A stretch of DNA of 49,638 bases, from the NCBI GenBank assembly GCA_905178155.1, contig CAJINV010000023.1:754775-804412 (forward strand), given 5' to 3'. The position numbers were made by a program, and so were the translations under genes. Below are positions 1 through 43,569 of the stretch, piece by piece; within the stretch, counting starts at the first letter, position 1; every line of letters starts with the position of its first letter. Below the pieces are notes generated by a model. That model had not been told where the DNA came from. It searched no databases and was given only the letters and a program-made list of their open reading frames with translations. This DNA comes from Amoebophrya sp. A120. Taxonomy: Eukaryota > Protista > Dinoflagellata.

Positions 1-1960
1 GGCAGGCCGACCCGCGACTTGCTCGCGCTCTCTATTGTTTTCATTCTATGCGCTTATTGGCATCGGCTTTCGCGAATCTCTCGAGTTACGCCATTGTGTT
101 CCTGGAATTCGGCCATCAGAAGCACGCATGGCGTCGGACATCAGACCCCATTTCCTGGGACAATAGCTCCCGAGCGGCTAGCTAAGCAGGCCCGGGCACC
201 TGGCGAGGACAGAGAAAAAATGAAGGATTGCCAAGCCCACTCGCCGAAGCAAGCGAATCGCATAGGAGGCTGGCCGCGTCTTCCGCTGTCAGGACCGTGT
301 TCAATTTGGTACATAGGTGCGCACACGCATGGCGGCGATGGACAGCTGCTTCATAAGCTTTACCCCTGCACCATCCATATTTTTGAGCCAGTGGGCCCCT
401 TCGTGGACAGTCTGAAGAAAGTTTGGGGCGCAAAGGGGCTGACTCGCGTTGAGTTCCACACCTTTGGCCTGGCCGCAAAAGCCCGACGAATCAGCAATGT
501 CGTTTACGACTCCGGTGATGGATCATCAACATTCAGCCTGGGCGAATCGAGCGGCGGCATGTACGGCGCCGCACCCGGCCAGAAAACTACAGACTTGGAG
601 TTGCGATCCGTAGCAGATGTGTGGCAAGCACTGCAGCAAAAAGGTCCGAAGGGCAGCGCTGTCGTGGACTTCATCTTCATGAATTGCGAGGGGTGCGAGT
701 ACGAGGTACTGCCTGCGCTCAGCAGCGCCAACTTACTTCCACAAGTGAAGTTCATACAGTGGCGACCCCACGAAAATTTCGAAGAGCTTCCCAGCATTCC
801 GGAAACCTACTGCCGCATTGAAAATTTTCTCAAGGAGTCGCATCGCATTACGGAGCGAGACGGCGGGGTTGGAAAGCGCATTAACTGGGAACGTTGGCGC
901 AGTACTGCAGAGGCTGGCCCTGCCACCAGCATCAGCCTGACGGCCGCACCATCTGCCACGAGTGCCAGACCGGCCAGCGTGGACACGACAAAGCTGCGAA
1001 GCACAATGCAAACCTGTGAGGCCCGCTCGCCCAAGCAAGCGAATCGCATAGGAGGCTGGCCGCGACTTCCTCTGTCGGGACCGTGCTCAATTTGGTACAT
1101 AGGTGCGCACACGCATGGCGGCGATGTATCACATCGAAACGTTGTGTCCCTGCCCCGTTCACAGAAATAAGCGGCGACATTTGTATACGCACATTTCTCC
1201 AAAAAGCAAAACGACCGCGCGCGGCAAAGTATCTTGGTTATGTGATCACAAGAACACCTTATGCAAATCACAGAACCAATGGCGCATGAAAAAATGCAAA
1301 CTGCGCTCGCTTTCGTTTTGGTTGTGATTCCTGGAATAGTTATGAGGACCCTTTTCGGTGTGATATCACGGACAGCTGCTTCATAAGCTTTACCCCTGCA
1401 CCATCCATATTTTTGAGCCAGTGGGCCCATTCGTGGACAGTCTGAAGAAAGTTTGGGGCGCAAAGGGGCTGACTCGCGTTGAGTTCCACACCTTTGGCCT
1501 GGCCGCGAAAGCCCGACGAATCAGCAATGTCGTCTACGACTCCGGGGATGGATCATCAACATTCAGTCTGGGCGAATCGAGCGGCGGCATGTACGGTGCC
1601 GCACCTGGCAAGAAAACTACAGACTTGGAGTTGCGATCCGTAGCAGATGTGTGGCAAGACCTGCAGCAAAAAGGTCCGAAGGGCAGCGCTGTCGTGGACT
1701 TCATCTTCATGAATTGTGAGGGGTGCGAGTACGAGGTACTCCCTGCGCTCAGCAGCGCCAACCTACTTCCACAAGTGAAGTTCATACAGTGGCGACCCCA
1801 CGAAAATTTCGAAGAGCTTCCCACCATTCCGGAAACCTACTGCCGCATTGAAAGTTTTCTCAAGGAGTCGCATCGCATTACGGAGCGAGACGGCGGGGTT
1901 GGGAAGCGCATTAACTGGGAACGTTGGCGCGTTAACGGCGGACCTACCTCTGTGAAATAA
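1..1960 (+). CDS. FkbM-family SAM methyltransferase with two tandem near-identical domains and N-terminal membrane anchor (5' end probably outside window); one non-canonical intron ~1127-1370
   Basis: Motifs WYIGAHTHG, IHIFEP, FGLA and FMNCEGCEYEVL occur twice; frame 1 is open from base 1; removing 244 nt joins ORF 19..1170 to ORF 1421..1960; hydrophobic LLALSIVFILCAYW. Confidence 0.85.
226..1930 (+). repeat. Intragenic direct duplication (~226-901 vs ~1014-1930)
   Basis: Near-identical nucleotide sequence; only copy 2 contains the 244-nt insertion. Confidence 0.95.
1127..1365. mobile_element. TIR introner (no family mate in window)
   Basis: TIR TATCACATCGAAA/TTTCGGTGTGATA; flanking 5-mers CGATG/TCACG; absent from the paralogous repeat; element+5=244 restores frame. 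Confidence 0.9.
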
Positions 1961-14500: not shown

Positions 14501-17500
14501 GTCTGCGATTCCGGACAAATCAGTAGCACCATGCGCAACGGCGTGGGAAAGAGTGGCGCCGTCACGGGACGCCGGCTTTGAAAATGGCACGAGGTACGCG
14601 GGCCCTTGCGACGTCGCAGCGGTGGACGGCAACATCACGAAAAAGTATGATGTGTGGCGGTGCCCAGAAACCGCGACGCGTGGGCACTTTTTCGTCCGAA
14701 ACCTGCGGTGTCAGGAAGGAAACGTGACTTTTTCCAATGATGCCGCCTACGTGCAGCGTGTCAAGAAGCTGGTTGGGTCCGACGAGTTCGAGTTCTACCT
14801 GTTGGGACCGGAGCTTCACGCACTAACGGATATCCTGAGTAAAAATGTCCCCACACCAGATTCAAGATGGGAAATCCGGTAGACAAATCAGCCACCTCTG
14901 GTTGTTTCGCATGACAAGTTTATCTCCGTAGTGTAATCCTGTTTAGCTAGTTGCGAAGCATTACAGATGTAGCACATCGTGCTGATTCTAGCATTGCAAA
15001 CTCCAAAACAGGACCAGAAAATGGCTCTCTTGGGGCTCCGCATGAGAAACCTTTTTGGCATGCAGGTTTGCATGACAAATCTGGGGTGGGGACATTTTTG
15101 CTCAGGATAACGGACCCCTCGGGTTTTCGAGTCCTCGGGGACTGCCAGTACCAGCTGCTGTACAACGTGACGACGCCGGGACGCTACCGCGCCGAACTGT
15201 GGATGCAGCGGGAGCGGTGGAGGGGAATCAGCGAAGCGGAGCCGAGAAAGTGGATAGCAGGGAACAACGACGACGTTCTAGGCTCGCAGGTGTTCATAGA
15301 CTTGGGAACAAGTGGAGCCGCCGCGGAGGGGGGCGCAAGCACAACCAGTACAACTGGAGCTGCTGACGTCCTCGCTGCCGGAACCGCTCAACAGCAACTT
15401 CCTCGGTGCGACTTGAAGAAAAATCCGGGTGACTTCGGGTTTGGCCGTATCCTGTGGAAATAAAACGGGGCCCACGACACCCCAGAGTTGTCATGCAGAT
15501 TTCTGATAATTCCAGGATAGAGCGCATAACCGTCCCCATCGTCTACTTCAGTAGAGGCATTATTATTTCAAATCGTGTACGAACTTTTGACATTTGTAAT
15601 GCTGAAAACAGGATGAGGAGCTGCAGGTGACATTTGTAATGCGTCCACGGCTGTGGTCCTTGCTAGAAGTACTAACCTGCTGAACTACAGTACAGAGAGA
15701 AATTTGTCATGCCTGCGCCCAAAACCTCTGGATCTGTGTTGCAGCATCGTGCCCATCTTGATTCTGGGGTGTGGGCGGCCCCTGATCTTTGCTCAGGATA
15801 GGCCGCTGGGTTTTTCGCGGCAACGGCACCGCGGGAGACGCGAAGCTGGCTATCCCACAGAAAAAAGCAGGTAGGGCATTTTCATATATGCAAAAATAGG
15901 TACGCAGAAAAATCTGCCATGGGCAACCCCATAGCATGCTGTTTAGGACATGCAGTGCAGATTTTTTTGTGGATTCATTTTTGCATTACAAATCTGACCT
16001 GCCTGCATTTTTCTGTGCGAAGCTGGCCGCGTACCGCCCAGAAATGGTGGCCCGCGAGAATTTATCCATTGCAAATATGTCTGGGTCTGGTAGAGTGCAC
16101 GAGGACAAATAAATGCTTATTTGCCTAGTAAGAAATGGGCCGCTTTTGGCGCGGATGCATCCAAAAATTTTTCCTATTCCAGAATCTGCATCACAAGTTG
16201 CAAAACCCTTCCAAACCCAGATCGTCGATATTTGCACTGCATAGAATTTGGGAACCTTCAAGGATCACTACGTGTGGGAGCCGCGCAACTGCCACCTGCC
16301 GTACTTGCCTGGGGACCGCGCCGCGCATATCCTGGGTAAAAACGTCCCCACACCTGAGTCAAGATGGGAAATCTACAACACAGGCCCCCAAGTTTTGAGA
16401 GTCCTGCATGAGAAGTTCTCATCTGCAGTGTAGTGCTGGTTAGCAAGCAAAGGCGCATGAAATGAAAGCCATTTTCTCATCGTGTTTACAGCATTACAAA
16501 TGCAAAAACACGAGTGCAAATGCCTCTCTTGGAAATGCGCATTACAAATGTTCCTGTCATTGCGCATTTGCATGACAACTCTGGGGTGGGGACGTTTTTA
16601 CACAGGATAGCGCAGTGCCTGCAGGGCAAGGGCATCCTGGTGGTGGGAGACTCACACGCGCGCACGCTCTACAACGCCCTCGTCAGCCACGTTTGCGGGC
16701 CCAAGGGGCCTCTAGGTGGGTGGCACTCGAATTCGTGCCTCGAAGGCAATGGCCTCCCGGACCGTTGCAAAAACATCAAGCTGTGCGTGCAGCACGACGT
16801 GTTCAACACCCAGCTGGCACAGACGCCCGAGAAGTCCAATCTTCAGAACTTTTATCGGAAGGAAAAGTCCCCCCTCCCCATATTGCAAAGGTATGTTTCC
16901 GAAAATTTGCGTTGCTGATTTGAGGTCACAAATCACATTTGTCTTGCAAGAAGACAAGGGCAGAAGCTTTCGCCCCATTATGGAAGCGATTCGCCATGCT
17001 GTTGGACCTAAAGAGACGCCGTTTGCCATGCTGAACAACTAGACCCAGACGCCCCTACCTAGCCTGGGGATCTGGCCGCAATGCCTCTCTGCAATACACA
17101 GCTGATTCGTGTACACAAATCCAGCGTCAGAAATTCCGTCTTGATATGGGGAGGGGGGATTTTTCATTTTGATAACTTTGACCTGGTCATTGCCGGGATG
17201 GGCCAGCACTCCTCTGCGGGTAACTCCCGCTGGAAAATTACCCCAGAGAAAAAGCCTGGCAGGGCATTGCTATCTACTATGTTCATGCGAAAAAAGAGGT
17301 CTACAGAGGCAGAGGTGGCGGGGAGGTCAAAAAGAGGTCGACAGAGATGGAGAGAATATATAGCAATGCCCTCGGCAGCTTTTTTCTGTGTGATAAAAAC
17401 AGCGAAGTACGTGGAGACAGTTTCGGCTCTATCAAAAGGAAAAATCCCCCGTCCCCATATCGAAAAGGAAATCTGTGATGCTGGATTTGCGTTGTACACA

Positions 17501-18072
17501 TATCACATCTGTCTTGCAATAGAGGACTGCAGGCATACGCCAACCCTGGGCAGCGAGGTTTTCACATAGGCGCCTAGCATTTTTACAAATGTCCACACTG
17601 TAGACCCACCAGCATCTTCACAAACCGCCTGCATAATGCGGCGTAGCCTGCTGTGGGGTTGCCTTCTTGCAACACAGGGACGATTTGTGCCCACAAATCA
17701 GCAGCGCAGATTTCCCGCGGCTTCCTTTTCGATATGGGGAGGGGGGTTTTTTGCTTGCGATAGGCCCGGGGTGCGGGTTTTGCGGCGGCGGTGAAAAAGT
17801 TCGGCAAGCCGATTTACTGGCACGATTTGAACGACTTTCCGTTTCGCAACGACGGGTTCGTCCGCGGCTTCCAGGATCGCCGTGGCCACTCTTTCATGCG
17901 GCTCTGGAACACGTACGCCGCCGAGGAAATGGACAAAAGACATATTCCGGTTCTACCCGCGTTTCCTAGCAGCCAAGCCTGGCAGCGCCAGACCGATGCC
18001 CACATGCCACTGCCAGTTCTTCAGGCGAGCGTGGCACAGTTTATCTGGAACGTCCTTGGCTGTAGTACGTAG
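11512..18072 (+). CDS. PC-esterase/NXPE-TBL-like (SGNH-fold) O-acyltransferase/esterase, type II membrane protein; 11 non-canonical introns (alternative ATGs 11464, 11572)
   Basis: TM LGTAACLVLLLLQIVL; GSDEFEFYLLGP; YQLLYNVTTPGRY; YVWEPRNCHLP; CLQGKGILVVGDSHAR (GDS); C-terminal TDAH; stop 18072. Confidence 0.85.
12013..12366. mobile_element. TIR introner, family A (decayed)
   Basis: AGCTT/AGCCC; 359 nt gives open exon DEMNAQL. Confidence 0.82.
12462..12745. mobile_element. TIR introner, family B-like
   Basis: CCTCG/AGTCG; 289 nt. Confidence 0.85.
12789..14384. mobile_element. Family A introner expanded to 1.6 kb by a nested insertion
   Basis: Perfect GGCTC; 1601 nt joins ORF 12739 to the frame of ORF 14553. 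Confidence 0.88.
13040..13960. repeat. GC-rich foldback array of degenerate units (GGCAAAATTGCC-GGAAATCGATT), inverted near 13400
   Basis: 13316-13357 is the near reverse complement of 13402-13440; units repeat on both arms. Confidence 0.8.
14831..15109. mobile_element. TIR introner, family C
   Basis: Perfect ACGGA; 284 nt. Confidence 0.95.
15448..15800. mobile_element. TIR introner, family C, reverse orientation
   Basis: Perfect GGCCG; 358 nt gives GRWVFRG. Confidence 0.9.
15851..16022. mobile_element. Short TIR introner
   Basis: CTGGC repeat (extends to GCGAAGCTGGC); CACAGAAAAA.GCAGG TIR; 177 nt. Confidence 0.82.
16063..16243. mobile_element. TIR introner, family B (short)
   Basis: Perfect GAATT; 186 nt. 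Confidence 0.9.
16328..16609. mobile_element. TIR introner, family C
   Basis: Perfect GCGCA; 287 nt. Confidence 0.95.
16853..17174. mobile_element. TIR introner, family A
   Basis: Perfect ACTTT; 327 nt. Confidence 0.93.
17239..17395. mobile_element. Short TIR introner, stop-free in frame
   Basis: AGGGCATTGCTAT/ATAGCAATGCCCT inverted repeat; AAAAT/AAAAC; 162 nt. Confidence 0.8.
17430..17762. mobile_element. TIR introner, family A
   Basis: GGCTC/GGCCC; 338 nt joins to ORF 17791. Confidence 0.9.
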
Positions 18073-18862
18073 TTGGAGCTATCCTCCATTCAAAAGCTCC
18101 ACCCCAGAGCGGCCGTATAACCTGCAAATATCGATCTGGGTCTGGAAGGTTGGAACTTGTATGTAATGCTGGTTTTTTTACCTTGTTCCTGTGAATAAAT
18201 CTGTGGGCATCGACCTGCACGGGCTCCATGTGTGCCGGAAGTAGCAGTGCAGCTACTGTGTGAGATGAGTTTTTTCTGCTCTCCCCGATAGAGAAAAGTG
18301 AAATGAAGGAAAAGCAGCCAGCGGAAGGATCATGACAAGCATGACGAGCAACCTTTTTGCCGCCCCCTTTTTTAGAAGTGCAACTTACAACTCCCTTGCG
18401 AGCATTAACACAAATAGCGCTCTCCGACCAAGAATGTAAAGTAGTGCAGTTGCACCAGCGTGCATAAACTTAGCCAATCAGATTACGCGGAGATCAGATG
18501 TTCTAAAATGAAACTAAACTATGCTGGTGCGGCGCGCTGAAGCGCGCCCCTAGTAAACTTCCTCATAATTTTGACTTCAAGTCCGTGGTTGAGGTCAGTT
18601 ACGTCTTCAAGCCTACTTGCGTAGTACTATGTCATACGCGGACGCAGCAGTTCCTGCGCCCTCGTGCAGAAGTGGGGTAGTAAAGTACCCCACGACCTCG
18701 CCCTCGGGGCAACTTTATTATTCTGTACCGAGGGACACAAATAAAAGTACATATAGAAGTATGGTCGACGCAGAAGGGGGAAGGACCACTACACAAGCGA
18801 CGGCTTTCGTGACGTGGCACAAGGACAGAGTGTTTCTTTCGTCTTGATAGCCTCGCCATTCC

Positions 18863-21733
18863 ATGCTCTGCGTGCTGGGCCTGGACCGTCTCGCGCGGTC
18901 GCTGGTGATCGCGTATTTTCTTTTTTTCTTCTTTTGCCTCGTGCGACACCGGCGCTCAGCTGCCCTCGGGCTGGAGGTGGGAGTAGCGCGCAGCAGTCCG
19001 CTAAAGGGCACACTGCCAACATCATCACACCTCGCGCGACCCCGAAAAAGGCTATTACAATGAAAAACGCCCCCTCCCCATATCAAAATGGAAATCTGTG
19101 ATGCAGATTTGTGGTCACAAATCAGTTTGTGATGTTAGAAGGCAAAAGATGCGGACTGTAGTGCTGTCTAGCGTGGGAAAGCCTTGCAGCTCCAGGATGA
19201 CAGGAGGCAACTGGAAGTGGGAAACGGCATGACAGATTACCTGCAATTTAGGCCGCAGCTTCGTCTCTTGGCCTTCTAGCAATACAAGTTGATTTGTGTA
19301 CTCAAACACAGCATCACAAATTCGCGCATCTTCCGTTTCCGATATGGGGTGGGGGCTTTTTTCACTTTGATAAAGGCCCGAGCCCGTTCACTTTGCGGAG
19401 GACCACTCTAATCTGGATCTGCACTTTATCAAAAGGAACAATCCCCCCTCCCCATATCGAAAAGGAAATCTGTGATGCTGGATTTGTGTACACAAATCGG
19501 ATTTGTCTTGGGGTGAAGGACTGCAGGCAGATATAAAGTCTGAGCAGGGTGCTTTCGTGTAGGCACCTAGCAAGGCAGGCGTGTCCTATGTAGGCCCTAC
19601 AGCATTACGAATTGCCTGCAAAATGCGGCGGAGTATAATCTGGATTTGCCTTCTTGCAATACAGAGACGATTTGCGCTCACTAATCAACATCACAAACTT
19701 TCAGAAGTGCCTCTTTTTGGTATGGGGAGGGGGAATTTTTCCTCTTAATACCCTTTCCAAGAACGCTATCCAAGTAGAGAAAATCAGCTGTCGATTAGTG
19801 TAGTAGTTGTCTTCGAGGAGAGGCATGACAATAAACTTCTTCCGAAACAAGACAGAGAAAGTTTGTCATGCGCAGCTGCTTAGGAGGTGTCTTCGAGGGA
19901 AGGCATGACAATAAAGTTCCTCCGCAACTTAGTTGTTGTACTATCGGTCTATATGAAAACAGCGATGAGAAGTTGACAATTCGTGGCTTTCTGGTACGAC
20001 AAGTGCTTATTGTTTGACATAGAAGTTCTGCTGCACATATTATATAACTTAAACTTTACACTCAGAATAGCTGCACAGAAGAAGTTTTTTTCTTGCATAA
20101 ACGCTCGGAAAGCTTCCGAAGCAGAGGTACACGGCGACCGCGAGGGCCGGCAACGATGAGGTTCTGCGGCTACTGCGCAGCGACAAGGTTTTCGTCGCGG
20201 CACGCCTTTCCTATAAAGGGGCAGAGGCGCAGGTTGCGCAGGCGATGATTCTCGGGAATACGAAAAGCGCCGGAACGCAGCTCCTGAAGGACGCCACCAT
20301 TATATTCAGAGGAAAAATGATCCCCCCTGCCCATTTTGAGAAGGTATGTTTTCGCAAATGTGTGCTGCTGAGTTGTAACCACAAATCAAGTTTGTCTTGC
20401 AAGAAGACAACTGCACAGGCCTCCGTGCCATAATGGAAGCGATTTGGCATCCTGTTGAGCCTAGAGGGCAGTCGTTTGCAGCGTCAATGCTAACCAATTA
20501 GACCCAGACGCCCCTACCTAGGCTACAGATCTGGCCGCAGTGCCTTACTGCAAGAAAATTATAGAGCGTATTTGTATAAGTACGCAAATTCAGCATCAGA
20601 AACGTCATTTTGATATGGGGAGGGGGGATTCATTTTCCTTTTTATACATCAATGCGGGAATCTATCCCATGACACAAGACGGGGTCGCCGCCTACGCCAA
20701 GGAGCTGTCGCGCTCCCTGGCCGAGCTTACTGAGGACGATCTCATCGCAGCGTTCGATTATTCAACCCGACCAAATGGAGAGATAGCGTCTCTCGAATCC
20801 AAGCTCTCCCGGGCCAAGGTTTACCCGAACCGTTTTTTGGAACCCTGGTATTTCCCCGAGAATCCGTGGTCAAGCGTACCAAATGAAAAAGAGATGTCCC
20901 GTCCCAACCCCAGAAGTTTCAAAAACGATATGTGTTGCATAAGATTTTCAAATGCGAATCTTTTTACCTATGCGTGCTTGGATTGGAACGCTGTCTCTCA
21001 TGCAGAGTGTAGGCACGCGAAGAAGTTCCTAGCTGACAGCCCAGCCTTGTAATGGGCCTTTTTGCAACTGAAATTTTTGCTATTCTTGTTCGAAAATAAC
21101 GCGTGACGCTGATACAAGAAAGGCGGCAGATGTTTCCATTGGGAACTTTTGCAACACAAACACCTTCATATTCTGGGGCGGCGGTAACATTTTTCACTTT
21201 GATAAAGCGCACTCGCCGGAAAAACCGTTCTGGTCATCGCTGCGATGGTAGAAAGTTTTCGATGCCAAATGCGTGAAGACCGCCGCCCAACCATTTGGAG
21301 CCACGTCAACAGCTCCATACTTCCCGAGTTTTCCATAAAATACGTGCCCTCGGTGCAATCCTGTTGCGGCCTCAGGCCCCACGCAAGCTGGACAGAGTCG
21401 CTCAAAGTGATGCAGAAGGCCATCGACGCTGTTGGCCACTTCGACGTGGCTCTGGTCGCGGCCGGGGCCTACGGCTTCCCCCTGGCCGCCTACTGCCGGC
21501 GCAAGCACAATCGGAGCGCCATAGTGATAGGAGGCGGGCTCCAGTTGCTTTTCGGAGTGAAGGGAAACCGTTGGGAAAAGCATCCCATAATTCGCCCGCT
21601 GTTCGGGTCGCAGTGGATTTACCCTCTGCTGTCTGAGGTCCCGAAGCAGGCTAATCTGGTAGAGGGCGCATGCTATTGGGGGCCCAAGGCTTTGAGCCTG
21701 GAGTACTGCCCCGCGACCCGGGGAAAGAAATAG
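18863..21733 (+). CDS. GT-D-fold-like putative glycosyltransferase of bacterial polysaccharide-locus type, with N-terminal anchor; 5 non-canonical introns (start uncertain)
   Basis: TM LVIAYFLFFFFCLV; NAGIYP; LEPWYFPENPWSSALAGKTVLVI; FDVALVAAGAYGFPLAAY; IVIGGGLQLLFGVKGNRWE; VEGACYW. Confidence 0.8.
19053..19372. mobile_element. TIR introner, family A (close relative of 28463-28783)
   Basis: Perfect AAGGC; 325 nt. Confidence 0.95.
19427..19750. mobile_element. TIR introner, family A, opposite orientation to 4212-4537
   Basis: CACTT/CCCTT; 329 nt. Confidence 0.9.
19767..20099. mobile_element. TIR introner with internal direct duplication
   Basis: Perfect AACGC; 338 nt; internal repeat TGTCTTCGAGG..AGGCATGACAATAAA. 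Confidence 0.85.
20303..20646. mobile_element. TIR introner, family A
   Basis: CATTA/CATCA; 349 nt joins ORF 20245 to ORF 20540. Confidence 0.88.
20877..21204. mobile_element. TIR introner
   Basis: Perfect AAGCG; 333 nt. Confidence 0.9.
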
Positions 21734-22465
21734 CACTGCCCCGCTGGACCCTCGTCCCCAAGGTTGAAAAACGTGCCGTGCGAGACAATAGTCCAAAACA
21801 GCTCTTGTTGTGATAGTAGCCGAATAAACCAAACGCCCGCACTGATGTCGGAAAGAATGGCGTCCAGACGACAGAAGTTCGTGGTTCTATGGTGGCACGC
21901 AAGACGCAAGCGGTTCGATAGTCTCATCTTTTTCCGTACAGCTTATCAATAGCCACGTAGCTGAGTGCGTCTAGACCTCTAGTCGGAACCAACAGCGAGG
22001 AAGGACCCATAATAAGCAGGAGGCTGCCGTTTCTATAGTACGAGGGAGTGCGTATAAGCATCTCTAACTCAGCGCAGAAGTTCGCTCCGGCTATTGTGCT
22101 CTACAACAAACACTTTACTTTTTGACTTTGCATGGCAATATAAGAAGGCTGCTGTTTCTAGCAACGCGGCCAGCTCCCGAGCTCGTTCGCCTGGCATATT
22201 CATTTGTCTGCAGCGATCGAGTAAACTTCGTCAGAATGCTGGCCCAGCGCGCTCTCTCTTGAACTGCGTTTCAAGGTCTTTTTGATTTGCTGCAGAGGGA
22301 AATAAACGCCGAAGAAGCCAAGCACCTGCCTGCTCTCGACTGTGGACCACGGTGCCAAACATTTAGACCCCCGCAACCCAGCCCAAAAACGAGGCGAAGA
22401 AAGAAACCACTGACCGAGTTAGCAGAAGTCGAGGCTGAAACATCAAGGCTAGTAAAAAATAAAGG

Positions 22466-25400
22466 ATGTCCAAGCTTTCCCCACTGCTGTATGTCTGCGC
22501 AACCCTGGGTTGCGTTTTTGCTTTCCGTCAGTTACTGTGGCAGTCTGGGGGTGGCAACCAGGCGGCATCCTGCGGTAGCGGCTACTTTCTGCGCGAGGTG
22601 CGCTCGTCTGGAACTTCGCCGCAGCTCCTGCAGTCCGGGACCACTATTTCAACACTCCAATCTATCGCAAGAAAAAACTGTTTCACTGTGAACTTGTGAT
22701 GCATAGAATGGAACACTTTGTCTTGCTACACCTGCAAGGCATGGGATTTTGAAGCGTGTTTTCCCTTTGAAAGCGCGTATGGCAAATTTTCTGTGTCGTG
22801 TGCAGCAAACTTGTGATGCGGATCTTGCAAAACCATCACAGTGAAGCAGTTTTTTCGTGGGATACAATCGCAGAAACCACAGCAATCCGAAAGCGGCCAA
22901 ACACAAGGAACGAGCTCCAAAGCCGCAACAGAGCAGGGGCAGGCAACAGCGGGAATCAAGCCACAACAACAAGACCTTGAAAAGAAGATAATCACGACCC
23001 CGACTGCAACAAAGGCCGCATCCCCAAACTCCGCCACAGATGGTTCCGCCGTCCCGCTTGGAGAAGAGGCCGCAAAACTGTGGGCCGACGAGGCGGACCC
23101 AGCTGGGGGCGGGGGCGACGGGAAAAAGAGCAGGCTCGGGCCGTTGTCGTGCGACAAAATCATCGCAAACCATGCAAGTGCCGACGAGGGTGTCGCGTAC
23201 GGGTACTTCAAAAAGGTGAAGGAGGTCTGCGGCGACTTGTGCAAAGTCGAGGACGTGAGCGAGATGAAGGCGGGCGCGAAAAAAAACTTCCACGCGGTTA
23301 TGACCTGCTCAAACGTTACAGTCTCAAACGTCACAATAGAGTCTGGATTTTGTCTTGCATGAAGCGCATGAGGAACTTATGTAGAGTTGCGCCTTTCGCA
23401 ATACAAATTTCGCCAGATATCAATGGGGTTTTGGGTGCAGAAACTTGCCATGCGCAAACCTATGGGACTACGGTAAATCATGCACTTCCTGCATCACAGA
23501 TTTCCATATTCTATTGTAACGCTTGAGATTGTAACACCTGAGCAAGTTATATCGGTCCGAACGAGTGTGGCACCTTTCAACTGTGAGTATCGTAAGGAAA
23601 AGTCCCCCCTCCCCATAGCGAAAAGGAGCGCCTCAGGGAATTTGTGATGCTGATTTGTGACCACAAATGGTGTTTGTCTTGCAAGAAAGCATCGACGTAG
23701 ACTCCGACCCATTATTCAGGCGGTTTGTAATGCTGTCGGTCCTACAGCGTAGAAGACGTTCCTCATGCTAAGTGCCTAGGCCAAAACCTCTCCGCATTGG
23801 CATGGTGTGGGCCTGCAGTCCTCTACTGCGAGCCAAGTAATGACTTGTGTACGCAAATCCAGCATCACAAAGTTTTTTTTCGATATGGGGAGGGGGATTT
23901 TTCCTTTTGATAGTGAGAAGCTGATGAACATGCCGTACGCGGACTGCCCAGCCGGCGCACCGAAAGCTGCGAAGGTCATTCCGCAGCTGTTGAAGTGGGA
24001 TTACACCCTCGGCGGCAAGGTGCCGATCAAGAGCGCGTATTTTTCCCATATCATGGCGAAAAATCATTAATTCCCCGCCCCACCCTCACAAGAAAAAAAC
24101 TGTGATGCAGAATCAGCCCTGTCTTGCAGCAAGAAACCTTCTGCGGGCGCACCCTGCGTCTACTTTTTGGGGATTTTCTCGCAGTCTAGCTCTTCCGCGT
24201 GCTAGACGTTCTTGACTCGGTAGGCAAATTCGCGTCACAGATTGCCTGCCCATTGCTTCCTTTCGCTCTTGCTTCCCAAGTATGCAAGACAGAGGCGGAA
24301 CTTCTTGCGGACAAAAATCAACAGCGCAAATCTTTCCTGTGATGCGGTTGCAATGGAGGGAGGGAAGCTTTTCCTCAGGATGTCCTAAGTAAAGTTTAAC
24401 ACGAAGAGAGATACGCCAAAAACCTGGACCAAGGAAATGCTGCAGGAGAGCGCCGAAAAATGCCGCACGGGGAGGCTCTCCGGCACGTACGGCGTTCAAC
24501 CATCAACCAAGATGTTCGAAGCATTTGCGGCCGCGCCGGGCACAAAAAACGGGACTGTGTTGGTCATCGGCAGCGAGACGCCCTGGGTGGAGGCGTGTGC
24601 CCTGGGTGCAGGTGCGAAGCAAGTGATCACATTGGAATATGGGGTGATCCACTCCGAACACCCGAACGTGAAAACCATGCTACCCGGAGAATTCTTGGAG
24701 GCATGGAAGACCGGCGCGCTGCCGAAGTTCGACGTCGTGTCCAGCTTCTCCTCGCTTGAACATTCCGGACTGTATCCACTGTGAGTAAAAACCAATAGTA
24801 CCAGACCCATATTTTTGTCACTGTCAAGGGTTGGCGATAAAAATCAAAAAGCTGCTGCTGCCGTCTAAACGCTGCATGAAAGGTTTTCATCCGAACGCGC
24901 AGTGTAGTCAAGCCTGGCAGTTGATGTAGCTGCCGCGTCCGAAATGATTATGCTCGTTTTTGGCTCGTGACTAGGGCATGACAAAATCCCCCAAAAACGA
25001 CTACAAAAACCCGTCAATGGGGAGCCGTGTGCAAAGTTCTGCTGGGTGGAATGTAAGTTTGCGTGTAAATATGTCTGTAGGGGCGTGCGTTTTTCCACAG
25101 GATGGACGGGGCCGATATGGCGACGCATTGAATCCATGGGGCGACGTCTTACAGGTAGCGAGGTCGTGGTGTGTCACGCGCGACGGAGGCATATGGAAGT
25201 GTCAGGATTAGAGAAAGCGACAAAGTAGTTGAAATGATTTGCAATGCATAAAATCGATACGAGTCGGGCCCTCAGCTTCTCAGTGGCGCATGACAAGTTT
25301 TGGTAGGGCGGAAATCCAGTCTGTCGCGGTGTTTGGGCAAAGAAGACTGCTTCTGTCATGCTATTCTTAGCTGCTCTATTTCTATCCCTAAACAGGCTGA

Positions 25401-26552
25401 AGTATAATCGGCCCCACATACCGACTGTCCAAGACACGCGCTGTGTGGCAAGTAGTTTCATTGTGTACGTTGCAAGGTTTTGCTTCAGCTTTATCGATTT
25501 CGATCCTGGCACTCTGATAAGGCAACCTGGTGGCATCCCAAGGAAACATCCCTCCTCCCCATATCGAAAAGGCATGCCTTTGCAAATTTGTGGTGCTGGA
25601 TTAGTGATCACAAATCGTGGCTGTCGTGCAAGAGAGCAAGGCCAGTAGAGCTTGCGCCGCATTATGCAGGCGATTTGTAATGGTACGGGTCAACAGGGCG
25701 ACAGGGCGGACGTCTGTCATGCTAGGCGTATACCTCATTCAAAACATCCCTGCCCAGGTTTTTTATTTGGCTGCAGTCATCTACTGCAAGGCAGCGCTGC
25801 TTTGTTTACACACGTCCCGCGTCACAGATTTCCTTTTTGATGGGGGGAGCAGGATTTTTTCATTTTGATAGATGGTCGGCTTGCCTGCGGGTGCTGACTC
25901 GCTGCTCTGGACCGCACATCGCCTGTACGGACCAAAGCGATGGCCTTACATTGGCACTAACTGGAAGCAAATCACTATCCTGTGAAAAAACTGGGCCCGC
26001 GCCCCATAGTCAAGTGGGGAACTCTGCAGTACAAATGCACGAATCTATCTGGGAGGCACGCAGGACAAGTTTTTGTCTGTAGTGTACTACTGCACCAGTT
26101 TAGCAGAGATAAGGGCATCTTCACAAGCCCATCTGCTGATCCTCGATCTTCTATAGCATTACAAATTGTACCAAATAACGACTAGAACCGGATGCTTCTC
26201 ACGGGGATGCGCATTACCAGCATTCCTGTAATTGCAAATCTTTGTGCTGATATCAACTTTGCTGGGGCGGGGACGTTTTTCCTCAGGATAGTCATGTCGC
26301 GAGGAGGTGGCGTCGGGCATATCACCAACATATACGAAAAACCGTCTCCGCCTACTATAAGCTGCTCAGGTGTTAAAATCTCCAGCATTGCAGTAGCGGA
26401 TACTGTCTTGGGGACAGTATCCGAACTCTCTCGCAACATTTGGGACTGTAACACCTGAGCAGCTTATACTCACCTCCGGAGGGTCGGCCCGTGTGCTGCG
26501 CGCGATTTCGCCAACATCTTCTCCGCGCGAGAAGGTAGATACTTCTTCGTGA
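22466..26552 (+). CDS. DUF268-family methyltransferase-like protein with N-terminal anchor; 9 non-canonical introns (last exon/stop uncertain)
   Basis: VLVIGSETPWVEACAL; ITLEYG; FDVVSSFSSLEHSGLGRYGDALNPWGD; GGNLVVGLPAGADSLLWTAHRLYG after excision. Confidence 0.85.
22663..22864. mobile_element. TIR introner
   Basis: Perfect CAATC; TTCACTGTGA/TCACAGTGAA inverted repeat; 207 nt. Confidence 0.9.
23299..23551. mobile_element. TIR introner, family E
   Basis: Long imperfect TIR (~40 bp); GCGGT/TCGGT; 258 nt. Confidence 0.88.
23588..23912. mobile_element. TIR introner, family A
   Basis: Perfect GTGAG; 330 nt. Confidence 0.95.
24049..24382. mobile_element. TIR introner, family A (decayed)
   Basis: TCCCA/TCCTA; 339 nt joins to the frame of ORF 24437. 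Confidence 0.82.
24773..25104. mobile_element. TIR introner (decayed)
   Basis: GACTG/GACGG; 337 nt restores the EHSGLGRYGD motif. Confidence 0.88.
25192..25519. mobile_element. TIR introner, family D
   Basis: Perfect AGGCA; 333 nt. Confidence 0.9.
25534..25870. mobile_element. TIR introner, family A (5' end CATC)
   Basis: GGTGG/GATGG; 342 nt. Confidence 0.88.
25976..26290. mobile_element. TIR introner, family C
   Basis: ATCAC/GTCAT; 320 nt. Confidence 0.87.
26356..26468. mobile_element. Miniature TIR introner, family E
   Basis: Perfect 20-bp TIR TATAAGCTGCTCAGGTGTTA; CCTAC/CTCAC. Confidence 0.87.
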
Positions 26553-27650
26553 TGGAGCTGGCGTCTCCCTTTTCGCAGGGTCGTAGCAGCCGATCTGCAG
26601 TTTCGGGCTTCCACTGTGAGTGCGTGCTTTTGCCACTATTGCAAGTTCTTACCTACGAAGCCGCGAACTCGTGGCCGCGTAACATGAACATGAAGGAACA
26701 AGCAGGAAAGTCGTAATTGAAAACAAGCAAATAACAAACACACAAGCAAAATAGCGCTTAGCTTGCCGCAGAGGTGCGAGCACAACGTGATGAAGAATTA
26801 TGGGCAGTTGTATTTTTCCTATTCAATGATTGTAGTCGCATTCGAGCAAGGGCCCAGTGAGTGCGAGATACGCTGCCGCCTACTGGTGCTCCAGGTTGGA
26901 GAATGAACTGACCTGAAGGCGCAATATTCCCTTTGGAATCCAGGACGTCACCTGCCCAAAAAATGTATTTCCACAGGGGAGAGCACATTGTAAGTTTTGT
27001 GCAGCTTTTGGTTGGATCCATACACCTGTAGCGCACGCCCGCGGGCCCTTTTCGAGTTTTCCCCACGGCTTGCCTGCAGTTCCATAACCAGCGCACGGAG
27101 CTCTTGGAACTGTTCCGAGTGAGTGCCCCAATTGGGATTGCAACCCGCCAGCACGCGTGGCGAATATGCAGCAAGGCATGTGCTGCTTACAATATACACT
27201 TGCTATGCTGTCCAGCCGCCAGGAGGTCCCCTTTTCATATGTGTTTTCACCGCTGCTAGTTTTGCACGACCAAAGGCGGACGTCTCTCTGATGCAGAGCA
27301 GCTTTTTCAGGCGGTCAGCATTGCAAGACCAGTAAAAGCCGTGCACTAGTTGAAAAACCAAACAGTTTAAATCCACAGGAACTTCCGGCAGTGGTCATTT
27401 TCCACTTGCACCTCGCGGAAAGAAGCATGTGAGTGCAACATGGACATGGTTAAGTGTCACCTCGTAGTGGTATTTTGCTTCCTTCGTCGACAACAACGCT
27501 CTCGCTTGTGCGTAGAAACAACGCAAATAACCTGCAACGAGGTTGTAGGAGGAGTCTAGTGCCTTCTCTCTCTATGTAAGAGCAAGATGCATTTAGTGTA
27601 GTAATTCCATCATCGAAAACGACGCTCATTTATGTAGCAAAACAAGCACC

Positions 27651-30318
27651 ATGGTAGCCGCAGCACCACCTTCCCGCTTCTTCAACACAGCCACAGTATC
27701 TACACTGCTTGCGCTTCATCTTTGGTCGTCCTTCTGCCTCCGGAGGCCGTTCTGGCGACCGAGTTTGCAAGCCGACACCAAGGAGGCGCACCGCTTTGGA
27801 TTTGCGTCGAAAAAGGAAGCTCCAACTCCTAATCCAACTCCAGCCGACGGGGAGGCTACAACACCTGGAGTTGCAGGCGCTGCTGCGCAGCAGGCCGGCG
27901 GTAAAATTGGATTTCCTACGGAAGTGGATACGACGCTCGCTCCGAGCACTGCGGGAGGCACTCCTGTCACGTCGACGCCATCTTCTAAGAAGACCGCATC
28001 CACCACCTCTGTACAAGCAAGTCCTGCTCCCGCTCCCACTTTCGCCGTCGGCGTCCCTTTGATTCCTCGCGACCTACAAAAAGACCGGCTATCAGTAGGA
28101 AAAATCCCCCATATCGAAAACGAAATTTGTGATGCTGTATTTGAGGACACAAATCGACTTGTAATGCTAGAAGGTGGCCAAGAGACGCAGCTGTGGCCTC
28201 GTCTACAGGCAATTTGTCATGCTGTTTCCCACTTTTAGTTGTTTTCTGTTATGTTGAAGACGCAAAGGTTTATTCCCACGCCAACCAGCACTACAGTCGG
28301 CATCTTTTCCCTTCTAGCATGACAAAGCTGATTTGTGGCCACAAATCTGCATCACAAATTTCTATTTTGAGTATGGGGCGGTGGGATTTTTCACTTTGAT
28401 ACCGGCTACGCGACCTTCTGTACGACTCCGTCGTGAATCAAGAGGTGCCGCCGGAAGAATTCTATTACCATGAAAAATGCCCCCTCCCCATATCACAACG
28501 GAAATCTGTGATGCATATTTGTGGTCACAAATCAGCTTTGTGATGCTAGAAGGCTAAAGATGCGGACTGTAGTGCTGTCTAGTGTGGGAAAGCCTTGCAG
28601 CTCTAGGATGACAAAAGGCAACTGTAAGCGGGAAACAGCATGACAGATTACCTGCGATTTAGGCCGCGCCTTCGTGTCTTGGCCCTCTAGCAATACAAGT
28701 TGATTTGTGTACTCAAATACAGCATCACAAATTCGCGCATCTTCCGTTTCCGATATGGGGAGGGGGGATTTTTCCTTTTGATAAATTCGTGGTCTTCTTC
28801 AGCGGAAAAGTGTCTACTATGAAAGCGGAAGCAGAGCACCAGCAGGCATCGAGCTCGAGCCCAAAGATCCTGCTTTCGGCGGCTGCGAGAGCGGCCGTGC
28901 TGGCTGCGGCGGCAAGGGCAAGAACGGTGGACAGCACGCATCCAATTGCAGTAGTGCCAGAAGCTGCTCCTGCGGTAGCACAAGCACCAGGGCGGTTTCA
29001 CCAGCTTCAAGAGAGTGCTCAGATTTTCAGTTGCCGCACGGAATACAACGCTACCACGGCCGACCGAGCCGTGAAAAACATCGAGGTTGAGACCTGTCGC
29101 GGAAAATTGGTAATCCCGCCAAGGTCCACCTCCGCCAAGTCGGAGGTAGAAGAAAGCGCACAAAAGCAGGTAGCCGTAACACTTCTGTGGGCGAAGCGTG
29201 TGGGGGAAAAACCGCTGGCGCGGTCCTTTTCACCGGGGGTGGGAAGAAACTGGATCGCCCGGGTAGCGGCAAGCGAGTACATCGCTTTTTTGGACAGCGA
29301 TGACTTCGCGTTTCCGGACCGCATCAAGTGGCTCAAAAAAGCGGCGGTGAAATCGGGATTGCCACACCTCATAGCCGCCAGATGGAGCTTTCCGGTGGTG
29401 CGGGTCGTGCGCCATCAAAGTCAGGCTCGCGGAAAAAGTGCAAACGAAGGCCTCCGTGGTCAAGCACAACTACTAGAAGAGGGGTCCGAGGACAAATTGA
29501 TGTACGATTCTGGTGAGTGTTCCGGTTCCTGCAACGGGTTTGGGCCGCAGCTGCGCAAATTCGTCCAAGCTCTCCCGGTGTACGAGCATTCTGCGCTGGG
29601 AGCAAGACAAGGAGAGCAAGCAAGCGGGAGATTGCGCAGGCTGATATTGGTGGGTCATTTCGTCGGCGACGTGCGGGCTGCGAGACGGTATGAGGAAGCG
29701 AAATGGAGCGACCTGTCCCTGAGCGCTCTCTCGGTGCAGTGTGGCGCTGGGGAAACAACTGGCGCACCTGGCAGAACGACGACTGCTGAGACGAACAAGG
29801 GCAAGGGGGAGGACTCTGAATATGTGAAAGTGAACAGAACAGCATCACCAAGTAGTAGAAATTTCGTCGAGCTGAAAGACGGGAAGATGGACTCACAACT
29901 CGCTCTACTAGTATCGGAGCGGTCCAGCACGATCACGGAGGGAACAGATTGCGTGTCCTTGGATACTGAGAACGCCGAAAACCGCGACGTTTTCTTGCGG
30001 TTGACGCCTCACATTTTGAAGCGGTACAAGGAACGGGGAAGGTGGTATCTAGAATGGTATCCCTATGGGCACATAACGGTGAAGCGGGAAGCTGCTGTTC
30101 GGATGCCATACCCCGAGATACCGAAGTATGGAGCGCAGCGCGGCGAAGACCAACGCTTTATCAGCAGAATTCTCACTTCAACTTCTACGACCGCTAGCAA
30201 TCGCATGGCCTTTTTGGAGAACTTGCCGCTCACGGCAAAATACATGGGGCGCCGGAGATCGTCTGCCTCAGCAGTAGCAGGCTCGACTCTTCGTCGTCTA
30301 GACAGAAAAACGACTTGA
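27651..30318 (+). CDS. GT2 (GT-A fold) glycosyltransferase with N-terminal hydrophobic segment; 2 non-canonical introns
   Basis: Reconstructed VGVPLIPRD...LLYDSVVNQEVPPEEFVVF; SPGVGRNWIARVAASEYIAFLDSDD (DxD); GEDQRF. Confidence 0.85.
28090..28401. mobile_element. TIR introner, family A (close relative of 3252-3562)
   Basis: Perfect CCGGC; 317 nt. Confidence 0.95.
28463..28783. mobile_element. TIR introner, family A
   Basis: Perfect AATTC; 326 nt. Confidence 0.95.
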
Positions 30319-30412
30319 GTCCATTGCAAGCGAGTCCGCTGCCGCCTCGAAAGAAATCTGCTGAGAAAAAGATGGAAAAGGCACTATCTTTTCAGTCAGT
30401 GCTTCCGTTTTC

Positions 30413-30948
30413 GGGGCCGCTACGTCAAGAACGACTCAGCAGCACGAATTCGCTGCGTCTTTCCAGACCCAGACATGTTTTCAGTGGATAGAGCAATCGT
30501 GCGGGGCTTGCATTATCTCGAGCGTTCTGAGCCCGTCTTCTACTCTGCAGTGACGAAAGAGGAGCAGTTAAGTACTTATCATTTGTGAAAACGTGCCCAC
30601 AACCCTATAGTCAAATCTAGAACCGCTCCGCAAGACAAATCCAGAACTTTTGGAAGTTGTCGTGCACGATAAGTGTCGATTTGCAGCGTGGTCAGTCCTA
30701 ATTAGGCCAGCTGCAGAACAAACGCAGCCCCTGACAAGCACTAGTGTGTGAGATGACATTTCCAAACACTACTAGAAAAGGGTAAGAGATTTACGACCGT
30801 GCACATACGCATGACAAGAACTCTGGGGTGGGTAAGTTTTTAGACAGAATAGGAGGTTTGGGGACGGGGCCGCGAGATAAATGCTGGGGAAATCGCCGCT
30901 CTGGAAGGGTTTCTGGTCGCTGAGATACCCCATTCACAGGCCTGCTAA
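30413..30948 (+). pseudogene. Duplicated 3' end of the GT61-like gene (copy of ~9779-10319), including a half family B element and the family C element 30577-30851
   Basis: High identity to 9779-10319; extra bases at the exon end shift the frame. Confidence 0.88.
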
Positions 30949-32041
30949 GTCTCTCTGGTCATTGATTCTTGAGCAGCGAATGATCGGCGTCGCTAGCCAC
31001 CCGTCAGGAGCACGACGACAATCGAGGTCGAACGCTTAAACTACACCTACCGGGACGGGAAGCCTTCGCCATCCACGACCGTGCGTGCACAAAGTAGTCC
31101 TCGACAGGTTTATGTGTTACGGCGCAACTTGGCGATCAAGCGCTTCAGGGTGACCATCAACTGTTTGCTGATTGTCCACTACTGCCCAACGCGACCACTA
31201 CTGCGAATAACCAGGACATCTTAGACGCGCTGCACATGAGCTTCACGTAAACGAGTGAGAATGGTACGGCAGCAAGTGTTGTTGGGAATGAACAGGCCGG
31301 CGGGAGCTCTTCCAGCACGGCAAACGCAGCAGACAGTGGCGGTTCGCTAGCGGCTGCGAGCGCTGCGGCAGAAGCGAGTGGTGCGTCTGGACCGGCTTCT
31401 CGCAATAAAGGCGGCGCACAAGCCGCGCCTTCTTCGAAAGGAGCTGCTGCATCAGGTGGAAAGAACGGCGCTACAGGGAAAAAAGCAGGAGCAGCAGTGC
31501 CTGGGAAGAACGGAGCGAAGTCTGCAAAGGGTGCTCCGATCCCTGGCGGAACTTCAAAGGCCGCCCCCGTGCCTCCATCGAAAGGCGCGGCGGTTCCAGG
31601 GGGGAAAGGGGAAGGGCGGGAAGGCGAAAGGAAGTGGGAGGCGGAAGACTCGGGAATTTCATACATGGAAGCAAGTTGCGACCGGTGTTCTGGTGGCAGA
31701 TGCACGATGTGGATGCTGGTATAAGAACTACTTCGACGTTATCCTTGATGCTACTTTGTGTTTAGTAGCTGTGATGTTCTTGCTGTGGTCGAGAGAATGA
31801 AGAAGTCTATCACGTTTCACCGTTCACTGATTTTGCATATCTGTCTTCGTCATCAACCTTGTAAAACCAACACCTCATGAACATGATCTCAGCCTCCCTG
31901 TGGGCCAAGCTACCGAGCGGCAACACCGGCGTCGAGGATACTTATTTCTTCCGAAAAGATGAAACCCCAACAAAACCCGGATGTTCCGAATCTCTCCGCG
32001 GAGAAAATGTTGGCGACGCTGAGCCCGAATTTCGAACAGCT

Positions 32042-32194
32042 TATGAATTGCAAAAGTATCGCACTCGTATAAATGCATTACAAATCTCCTCAGCATGACA
32101 AATGGAACAAACGTCTCATGCTGATTTAGCTTGGCAAAGAAATTTGTCTTGCATAACTGCAAGTACTACGAATGCGATACTTTTGCACTGGATA
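32042..32194. mobile_element. Short TIR element
   Basis: TGCAAAAGTATCGCA/TGCGATACTTTTGCA; CAGCT/CAGTT. Confidence 0.85.
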
Positions 32195-32258
32195 CAGTTT
32201 TTGGAACAGCAATTCCCGGTGACGCAAGCAAAGATCCCAATGCAGGCTTCCGATGCGA

Positions 32259-34273: not shown

Positions 34274-34330
34274 AAGCAGTTTCCGCTGTGTCAGCCTGTA
34301 TGGTTTAAGTAATCCTTTTTCTCTTTTGAT

Positions 34331-34596: not shown

Positions 34597-34601
34597 TTGA
34601 A

Positions 34602-36219: not shown

Positions 36220-36326
36220 GACTTTTGATTTATCATTATTTGCGTGGTGCTATGCGAATGCGCTTGCATCTTTTCCACTGTTCCGGCGAGTAGCCGCGTT
36301 GTGTATGAATATCTCTCTCACCTCCC

Positions 36327-41365: not shown

Positions 41366-43569
41366 ATGGGGGGCCCCAATTTCTTGGAAAAAGTCAAGCT
41401 CCACGTGCAGTACGCGTATGTAGCGGTTAAGGACAAGAGGACGAACGTTTCCGGCAGAGCAGTCGAGGAAGCTCTGCGCATCCTACTTGAGCTTGCGGAG
41501 AAGTATGGACATTTTATCGACAACGTGGAGCCGTTCACATCGCTGCAGAAAGTAGCAGGCGCTAGTGCCGTTCATCAAAAGAATAAGAAGGACCTTCTTC
41601 GAAGTCAAAGCTGCCCACCTCAGGCGTCTTCGCATGTCAGCGGCAAGCGACCCGGGAACAAGTTTCAGCCAGGGCGCCGCGACGGAGATAACAGCGCGAA
41701 GCTAGCGCGTGAGCAACCACAGCTACAAAAGCAGAACGCGGAGGAGCCAGCCCGTCCGCGCAGACTTTCAACCAACAAAAGAATGGCGATCAACGCCAGC
41801 CCAGAACAAGGCGGCGGCAGTTGTTCCGTCGACCTTGGAGCTAATGCTGCAGAGCAGAAAGAGGATGAGGACGCGCTCCCAGAGACGAAGGCGAGCGCTA
41901 AGGCAGTTTCCGGTCGTGGGGCCAGTGCACAAGCAGTACCAAAAGCAAAGCCGTCCGACCTCGCCTTGGTGGCAGTGCGTCACAACGGAATATCTGCTGA
42001 AAATATGATGTCTGGGTCCCGAAGGTTGCAGCGAGTTTCATCCTTGAATAGCAGAAACGCATAAAGTTATGCGCTGCATTTAGCTCATGCAAAACGAAGG
42101 GCAGCTTGTTTGTCATGGGTAGCTGTGCACTGAGGTCTGCTTAAAACAGAAGAAGTGCGCTTTGTTCGTTATTGCAACTCTCCAGACTGAGACACGTTCG
42201 CACTTGATACGGGAGAGCCGCTTCCTCGAAGAAATTACGGAAAGTGGCATCAGCGGAGCATTTCACCGCTGGCGAAATTGGTGACGACCGGGATATGAAG
42301 CCGAAGGAAACGATGACGATGAGCAGTATGAAGGTGAGTAAGAGCGGCGGCATCTTTTCCGGGAAAAACCACGCACCACATGCCTCCTCCGAACCGAAAG
42401 CGGGAAGCGCGGGAGTATCAAATGATAACAACGCCGCCAACTCTCGCGCAGATAAAGCGGCAAAACAGGCCGGCGAAAAGTCGCCCGCTGCAGTGGCGGC
42501 ACCCTCGAAGCTGGAGAACGTCGGCGAGCTGAATCCTGCTGCGGTCGATGACGATGGAAATCTGGAAGACGCCGTATCCAGGCTGTTGGCGTTTATGGGG
42601 CCGCTGCTATCCTGTGTAAAAACGTCTCCACCGCAGAACTGTCATGCAGGTTTACGAAGACAGGATCATTTGTGATGCGCATCCCCAAGATAGGCAATTC
42701 TAGTACTCGCGTTGGGAAATTTGTAATGCTGTAAACAGCCTATAAGGAGATGGATTTGTATAATGCGGCTGTCCTTGCTAAATCGCATTACCCTACGGAC
42801 TGCACTTTATCATGCGTGAATCCCACAAATTCTAGGTTTGTGCTGCAAAGCCACCATCTTGGGTCTGGAGTGGAGACGTTCTTCCTCAGGATAGCTGCTG
42901 AACATGAGCAACAGCCAAAAGCAGCACGGAATTGAGGTTGAGAAGAAGTGCAGGAAGTGGCTAGCAGACACGGCAGCGAAGATGCTTAACCGAGTGCGGC
43001 TTGTATCCAAAATAAAAGCACGCCCGTGCCATATACAACAGGCCGAAAGACGAACGCTCTGAGCCCGATGTATATATCCAGGCTTACAGGTCGCATTCGT
43101 CGTCCTTGTCGCGCCTGTTGATTTTGATGGAGACTGGCACCCAATGAAGGCAAGATGGTCGAGAATGGGATGCCCGCGTCCTTCTCTTTTTCAGGAGCAA
43201 CATGTCTACCCACCCACATTCGAAGGATGGCGCTTCGTATTTGTCGCCGCGGGCTGCTTTTGTTTTGGATACGCCGACGAAGATGGAGAGGACAGGGAGG
43301 AACAGATACTCTGCGACGAAACATCCCCGGAAGGGGTGCTGGCAAGCTCTTTCAAGACGGTGGCGGGTTTGCGGGTGCTCCAGTCGCGGGGCAGCGGATC
43401 TTTTCCGGACCACTGCTTCCGAGACGAGGTCCACGAGCTGACCCCGCTCGCCGTTCTGCAGGTTGTGCCGGGGCTATCCATCAGACAAATCCAGCAGCAA
43501 GCAGCTGGAGCAAACGGGCCTGCGAGGTGCGCGCCGTCGAGGCGCGCCCGTTGTCGCTCGCCTTCGTAA
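41366..43569 (+). CDS. Hypothetical protein with three introners; may be the N-terminal part of the downstream kinase-like gene
   Basis: ORFs 41234, 42244 and 43144 join in frame after element+5 excision; ATG 41366. Confidence 0.6.
41991..42209. mobile_element. TIR introner, family B-like
   Basis: CGGAA/CGGGA; 224 nt. Confidence 0.82.
42608..42893. mobile_element. TIR introner, family C, reverse orientation
   Basis: Perfect GCTGC; 291 nt. Confidence 0.92.
43004..43271. mobile_element. TIR introner
   Basis: TATCCAAAA.AAAAGCA TIR; GCTTG/CGCCG; 273 nt. Confidence 0.82.

Follow-up and report, generated by a model that had tools for sequence, protein, structure and literature searches.

The DNA analysed here, referred to as the window, is a stretch of 49,638 nt from the genome of Amoebophrya sp. 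A120 (contig CAJINV010000023.1), in which the 11 longest spliced ORFs all lie on the plus strand. It contains a gene with a DUF268 domain interrupted by introners, among them two focal ones flanked by mismatched copies of a 5-bp repeat, and FkbM-like copies whose FkbM domain matches (E 0.003 and 0.001) are both below the Pfam cut-off (Table 1). Within the DUF268 gene, the exon stretch 24389–24772 is 100 % identical to the public protein P0001 of Amoebophrya sp. A120, an identity on which a diplonemid or euglenid origin was set aside.

Transposon-like elements of the window and of related loci

Elements of 110–540 nt (one of 1.6 kb) that start with TAT and end with ATA are present throughout the window, placed between direct repeats of 5 bp. 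In a set of 56 elements curated by hand (median length 285 nt), a perfect 5-bp repeat was found in 29, compared with 0.54 expected when the pairing of left and right flanks was shuffled, the curation itself having made use of the repeat. Related loci provided a fairer test, as the element finder applied to them ignored the repeat: a scan with one element end yielded 58 metagenome loci, 57 of them from one assembly, and 55 were kept, an unrelated AT-rich locus and two that overlapped having been removed. In these loci 276 elements were found, of which 183 had a perfect 5-mer repeat, and in the 255 with at least three matches the identity between the copies was 0.92–0.95 at the five positions and 0.19–0.28 outside them. 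The terminal inverted repeat starts with TAT and runs into an A run (consensus TATCAAATGGAAAAAT, 112 ends). Since empty paralogous sites carry a single copy of the 5-mer (seven rows of empty sites), the repeats are target-site duplications.

With terminal inverted repeats, a duplication of constant length, one-copy empty sites and no coding capacity, the elements have the features of MITEs. They also have those of A120 introners, namely the strain, a TAT inverted repeat with an A run, borders marked by direct repeats, repetitiveness and non-canonical removal from RNA. Element families are present in the window, where neither focal element found a BLAST partner at 1e-6, and related elements occur both ways round, those at 17430 and 19427 being opposite to that at 25534, and 17430 being opposite to 20303. 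Paralogous pairs of loci with shared elements had repeats without differences, and Rfam gave no match within the window. We also observed an element (9555–9864) containing three telomere-like AAACCCT units at 9645–9665, another (12789–14384) enclosing a GC-rich repetitive stretch of about 1.3 kb, over which the sequencing runs X3 and X4 had no depth at 12838–14105, an element outside the catalogue (8428–8787) whose flanks are offset by one base (AAAAT/AAATG), and a tandem repeat at 47683–49630 with a unit of about 140–148 nt in at least 12 copies.

The introners of A120 have been described as carrying inverted repeats that start with TAT, continue with about seven less strictly conserved bases and lead into a run of A, with direct repeats at the borders and RNA-seq support (Farhat et al., 2021; PMC7789003). 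The passages of that paper considered here give repeats of 3–5 nt, 'no clear splicing signature', splice sites that are 'variable' and a border position that is 'unknown' (Fig. 3 legend), and one sentence on the position of the repeat is ambiguous. The elements of the window agree with this description in the organism, as judged by protein identity, in the TAT inverted repeats, in the border repeats and in ends other than GT-AG, and differ from it in a repeat of exactly 5 bp and a cut fixed between bases 4 and 5 of the repeat (hereafter the 4+1 register). The same passages report no cognate transposase in A120, and a later study, as far as the part considered goes, describes a family with integrase-like ORFs. 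A survey of introners from 2025 gives, in the 19 of its 58 A120 family rows considered, mixed donors, duplications of 2–5 nt and conflicting mechanism labels.

Table 1. Positions in the window of the genes, repeats and introns discussed in the text (all on the plus strand)
Feature	Position	Strand	Remarks
Empty site CGATG	336..340	+	Intron-free tandem FkbM-like copy
Predicted intron	1126..1369	+	FkbM-like copy, repeats CGATG/TCACG; predicted by the 4+1 rule from sequence
Intron, repeats AAAAT/AAAAC	17238..17399	+	Base 5 from downstream copy; joint 17233>17396, slide 4, in X3, X4 and X8
DUF268 gene, whole	22466..26552	+	10 exons, 9 introners, 500 aa; end computed from exon lengths
Upstream repeat TCCCA	24044..24048	+	Bases 1–4 exonic, base 5 is intron +1
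Intron, 339 nt	24048..24386	+	A, element 24049–24382 (TAT...ATG), TCCT; joint 24047>24387 in X3 and X4
Downstream repeat TCCTA	24383..24387	+	Bases 1–4 intronic, base 5 exonic
Exon, first half of DUF268 domain	24387..24771	+	PF03269, E 2e-11
Upstream repeat GACTG	24768..24772	+	Supplies Leu of GLGRYGD
Intron, 337 nt, GT-CG ends	24772..25108	+	G, element 24773–25104, GACG; joint 24771>25109 in X3, X4 and the polyA run X8
Downstream repeat GACGG	25105..25109	+	Bases 1–4 intronic
Intron, repeats ATCAC/GTCAT	25975..26294	+	Base 1 upstream, base 5 downstream; joint 25971>26292
Intron, decayed repeats GTACT/GGAGG (2/5 match)	30576..30855	+	X3 pieces end at 30575 and start at 30856
Intron	41990..42213	+	Skipped in X3, intact in the DNA-like run X1

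Splice register in transcript contigs

Sequencing runs were placed on the intervals 8400–27400 and 27400–47300, and the informative runs all consisted of assembled contigs; of the others, X11, a set of raw reads labelled as the same species, contributed one read and X10 none. For the former interval, joints were taken from a listing of 15 out of 46, while for the latter contig pieces were read for three sites, since repeat contigs of run X1 filled the joint table. It was possible to resolve 12 junctions whose repeats are mismatched (17239, 17430, 19427, 20303, 23299, 24049, 24773, 25534, 25976, 26356, 30577 and 41991), and all 12 agreed with a cut that follows base 4 of the upstream copy, as compared with nine for a cut after base 5, six for one after base 3 and three for the mirror cut after base 1. 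With independent uniform cuts as the null, the probability of 12/12 at one register is 7e-5. Mismatched bases at positions 1–4 derived from the upstream copy in 13 of 13 cases and those at position 5 from the downstream copy in three of three, so the intron takes the form N-TAT...ATA-NNNN, cut one base before the start of the element and four bases past its end. Several unrelated element families are represented among these junctions, and at 17430, 19427, 25534 and 20303 upstream bases were kept at positions 2 or 4 in all four, whatever the orientation of the element. The junction at 39725, for which one side only was listed, was left out of the 12 and agrees with the rule; that at 12013 was excluded on account of a base 5 that differs from both copies, and the joints listed did not include 9943, 11203 or 12462. 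We conclude with high confidence that the cut has a fixed position, directly behind base 4 in the upstream copy.

This refines a preliminary description of the sequence, which had taken the upstream copy to be exonic and had placed the 5' junction after its base 4 or 5. The former statement held for bases 1–4 and failed for base 5, which came from the downstream copy at two of the sites proposed there for checking (17239 and 25976) and additionally at 30577, and the latter could be narrowed to base 4. Similarly, an intron expected to start with NT or TA and to include at least four bases of the downstream repeat starts with N-TA and includes exactly four.

At the DUF268 gene, the coordinates previously given for TCCCA/TCCTA and GACTG/GACGG were all correct, and both predicted junctions were observed in transcript contigs (Table 1). 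Cutting after base 4 at 24044/24383 gives the 500-aa protein, which is the same as P0001 over residues 1–475, while keeping downstream base 4 ends the protein at 262 aa, in agreement with the in-frame stop that had been anticipated for the downstream copy. At the second site the upstream copy had been expected to give GLGRYGD, and this was supported by both the joint and the database: the variable residue of G-x-GRYGD is Leu in 43 of 47 database matches (P0001 among them) and Arg in none. It should be noted that the P0001 gene model is possibly not independent of the runs used. A further intron of 118 nt (26355–26472), seen in X3 and X4, is unspliced in P0001, whose C-terminus past residue 475 reads into it.

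The FkbM-like locus, for which it had been noted that the intron-free paralogue keeps upstream CGATG, gave a concordant result, the empty site being equal to the upstream repeat (1122–1126) and different from TCACG at 1366–1370 at all three mismatched positions. Empty sites agreed with the upstream copy at this locus and at one related locus (L025).

The junction at 30577 is informative as to what sets the position of the cut: its repeats share two of five bases and permit a cut after base 4 only, which argues that the element ends, and not the repeat, are decisive. In a duplicated gene end (30440–31100 and 9800–10560), the second copy has eight extra bases directly before TAT, and the cut tracks TAT. 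Under the 4+1 rule, the 118 oriented elements of the related loci have intron phases 0:1:2 of 55:33:30. Among 28 oriented mismatched junctions of these loci, one stop arose, only if base 5 was taken from the upstream copy, too few to weigh, and synonymous mismatches (15/34, where random changes would give 0.31 and a single unconstrained copy 0.47) were not decisive. Micro-exons of 9 nt (25524–25532) and 11 nt (19755–19765) between neighbouring introners were kept in transcript contigs. Contigs of X3 and X4 also spanned 21205–22657, crossing the stretch from a gene end at about 21740 to the start of the following gene at 22466, possibly owing to overlapping UTRs, read-through or assembly joining.

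Level of removal and generality of the register

The preliminary description had favoured removal at the RNA level, with a polarity that follows transcription. In the interval 27400–47300, run X1 covered all 30 bins at never less than about 40x and passed through the elements without gaps, with pieces of 5.1 kb and 7.7 kb that traverse elements unbroken, including the one at 41991 that is skipped in X3. Runs X3 and X5 had uneven depth, skipped or flanked the elements and fell to zero at 40680–41343, where X1 reached 42x; X3–X5 are classed as RNA by inference and not by record, and the window may itself derive from X1. Run X8, recorded as polyA RNA from a separate study, contributed three joints on two low-depth contigs. 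Since the elements are retained in the DNA-like run and the rule applies to elements of either orientation, removal at the RNA level is supported, and since elements in both orientations all keep the upstream bases, the polarity follows the gene, as had been predicted.

Two ways in which such joints could arise without splicing were weighed against these data. Were the elements cut from DNA, by programmed or transposon excision, the spliced contigs would represent rearranged DNA, an idea that suits MITE-like elements with empty paralogous sites, the lack of a record of X3–X5 as RNA and the intergenic stretch spanned by their contigs; a minor excised fraction could also escape contigs that drop rare variants. 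The unbroken X1 pieces and the depth gap shared by X3 and X5 speak against excision, as do the identical joints in polyA run X8 and a retention that tracks the gene and not the orientation of the element, and we consider this explanation very improbable. An equally slight probability attaches to template switching by reverse transcriptase over a hairpin between short direct repeats, a known source of false junctions, which is difficult to reconcile with a single register at 12/12, with an exact joint at 30577 where no base is shared at the cut, or with the recovery of the 500-aa frame and the conserved GLGRYGD upon removal.

Removal from RNA at a fixed register being our reading, its generality was also considered. 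The 4+1 register might be dominant and not universal, some families or older elements being cut elsewhere, as the 'variable' sites of the original paper imply. All 12 resolved junctions come from one window, the published family tables, in the part considered, also contain GC and GA donors, and two observations here are discordant. At 12013, base 5 is G in one X4 contig, unlike in either copy; this contig may derive from a paralogue, given two further X4-only differences nearby. The other concerns the expectation that minus-strand genes show the mirror pattern, which was contradicted by one comparison in a related assembly: the two copies of the repeat at locus L028, a minus-strand gene, disagree at position 3, and the residue found there in its A120 orthologue, P0048, is that of the downstream copy. 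The two are 93 % identical over the exon concerned and the stretch around the site is otherwise identical; an exonic substitution in the lineage would explain this sequence comparison, which would otherwise break the rule. Orthologue searches for L009 and L023 gave no usable orthologue. On the other hand, the 12 junctions that fit belong to several unrelated families, and alignment sliding in perfect repeats would by itself be expected to yield the published spread, so that we regard departures from the register among A120 introners as improbable.

Intron ends and candidate machinery

Under the 4+1 register, the 56 elements of the window have 37 distinct pairs of intron ends, none of which is GT-AG. 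The hallmarks of canonical U2 introns (a GT or GC donor and an AG acceptor) were largely missing, with G at +1 in 13/56 and AG in 2/56. Enrichment of +1 G is at most weak (13/56 in the window; 49/118 in related loci against 38.6 expected, symmetric test, p 0.09), and the 3' arm showed no branch consensus and no bias towards AG (2/56 in the window, 6/118 in related loci). In contrast to +1, position +2 is T in 55 of the 56 elements and A at +3 is nearly invariant; the sole element with C at +2 (25533–25874) has G at +1 and thus a GC donor.

The ends of the elements were found to decay unequally. In 238 oriented elements, positions 1/2/3 of TAT were changed 2/2/7 times in the 5' arm and 10/0/2 times in the 3' arm (Fisher p 0.009 pooled, 0.08 and 0.19 per set; a post hoc comparison). 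Thus, ends that are symmetric as DNA decay with transcript polarity, an observation that appears to be new. A transcription-linked A-to-G bias was considered as a cause and set aside, as it suits position 1 of TAT and not position 3. The arms pair best at positions 1–3 and 11–14 and weakly at 4–8, and the minimum-energy fold paired the outer arms in two of four introns tried. G-U pairs were not in excess over A-C (87 and 70 in the window, p 0.2; 111 and 124 in related loci), which gives no support for a selected RNA stem.

Comparable introns are known in other lineages. According to the part considered of the report on Polarella glacialis (bioRxiv 10.1101/2020.10.14.339549), class 12 introners share with the window a 5-nt duplication, a donor made in the NNAGG frame of the last repeat base and the first element base, an acceptor in the downstream repeat and hence the 4+1 geometry; they differ in needing AG and G in the target, in having two frames and in lying in one orientation, while A120 elements use any target in both orientations. 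The nonconventional introns of Euglena, in the passages considered of PMC12501133, likewise have inverted ends, slidable direct repeats, a register derived from non-slidable junctions and an N6 stagger, in an unrelated lineage with CAG/CTG at +4 to +6, a purine following the 3' cut and a reported importance of base-pairing. The consensus of positions +1 to +8 in the window, N-T-A-T-C-A/C, does not match the Euglena signature (N3CDG...CHG-N5-6, then a purine): TAT/ATA begins at +2, and no wobble signal was found. In Fritillaria borealis (PMC11282704 and PMC13326754, in part), introns are also MITE-derived with inverted repeats and target duplications and are removed by a modified U2 spliceosome, with preferred ends AG-AC/AG-AT and a conserved U1 snRNA, as opposed to NT-NN and an undetected U1 in A120.

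As regards the machinery, the cited parts of PMC7789003 report that A120 keeps U2, U4, U5, U6 and 83 of 89 spliceosomal proteins and that U1 snRNA was undetected; of the predominant non-canonical ends listed there, 9/9 start with NT in A120 and 9/9 with TT in A25, whose repeats start with TTA, so that both strains may keep the UA of the GUA donor. On balance, we consider it probable that the 4+1 register is cut by a relaxed U2-type spliceosome that has no need for the terminal G and the AG. Several observations lean this way: placed on an NNAGG target, the register would read as GT...AG, the frame of Polarella class 12; +2 T and +3 A are near-invariant, with a single window exception that reads GC; and the ends decay by transcript polarity. 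The +1 G and the −1 G pair in the second step of splicing, so their joint loss is possible.

The same fixed register could instead be produced by a non-spliceosomal endonuclease and ligase reading the hairpin of the inverted ends, as proposed for Euglena. Such a machine would require no terminal dinucleotide, in keeping with the variety of end pairs, and would suit the report that U1 snRNA was undetected in A120; moreover, T at +2 paired with A at −5 gives, by our own derivation, the stagger of the N6 form as described in the Euglena passages considered. It is not favoured by the balance of G-U and A-C pairs, by weak pairing at positions 4–8 or by folds that joined the outer arms in half of the introns tried, and the terminal bases are conserved by transcript polarity and not as pairs; we therefore view it as rather unlikely. 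A tRNA-type bulge-helix-bulge cut was rejected, as its geometry would leave six bases after the stem and not four.

For the relaxed spliceosome, we suggest the following sequence of events. Insertion creates the 5-bp duplication, as seen at the empty sites, and splicing retains upstream bases 1–4 and downstream base 5, as at the 12 junctions, so that one 5-mer is rebuilt at any target and in either element orientation. The cut would be placed by the element ends and not by the repeat, as suggested by the one junction with a 2/5 repeat. TA at +2/+3 may replace the UA of the GUA donor, the 3' cut may be counted from the last TA of the element and, more speculatively, the A at −7 is a possible branch nucleotide. 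In its full form the proposal is tentative: the A120 spliceosome may have dropped both terminal Gs, the acceptor AG and U1 snRNA, transposon ends alone defining introns by a donor N-UA, a 3' site four bases past the terminal UA and perhaps a branch A at −7, with traceless splicing at any sequence and orientation and with +2U/+3A shared by A25.

The elements are already known, and the fixed 4+1 rule appears to be new: it was not found in the literature searched, which included text passages of PMC7789003, and is not given in the passages considered of two reviews, a 2022 survey, the 2025 Amoebophrya genome paper and a 2026 tunicate paper. The host is a marine parasite whose transposon-derived introns are without the usual GT-AG ends, and the way in which A120 removes about 60 % of its introns in the absence of GT-AG has been an open question since 2021, partly because the repeats mask the true borders. 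A fixed rule of the form N/TA...TA-NNNN/ makes removal testable, as it points to where lariats or circles should be sought, to the bases worth mutating and to the changes to be expected in U6, U2 and Prp8. It would also correct gene models such as P0001, which is without the last intron of the DUF268 gene. If true, the rule would account for the published diversity of end pairs, which would then reflect random target bases together with sliding by the aligner, and for the tolerance of tens of thousands of insertions.
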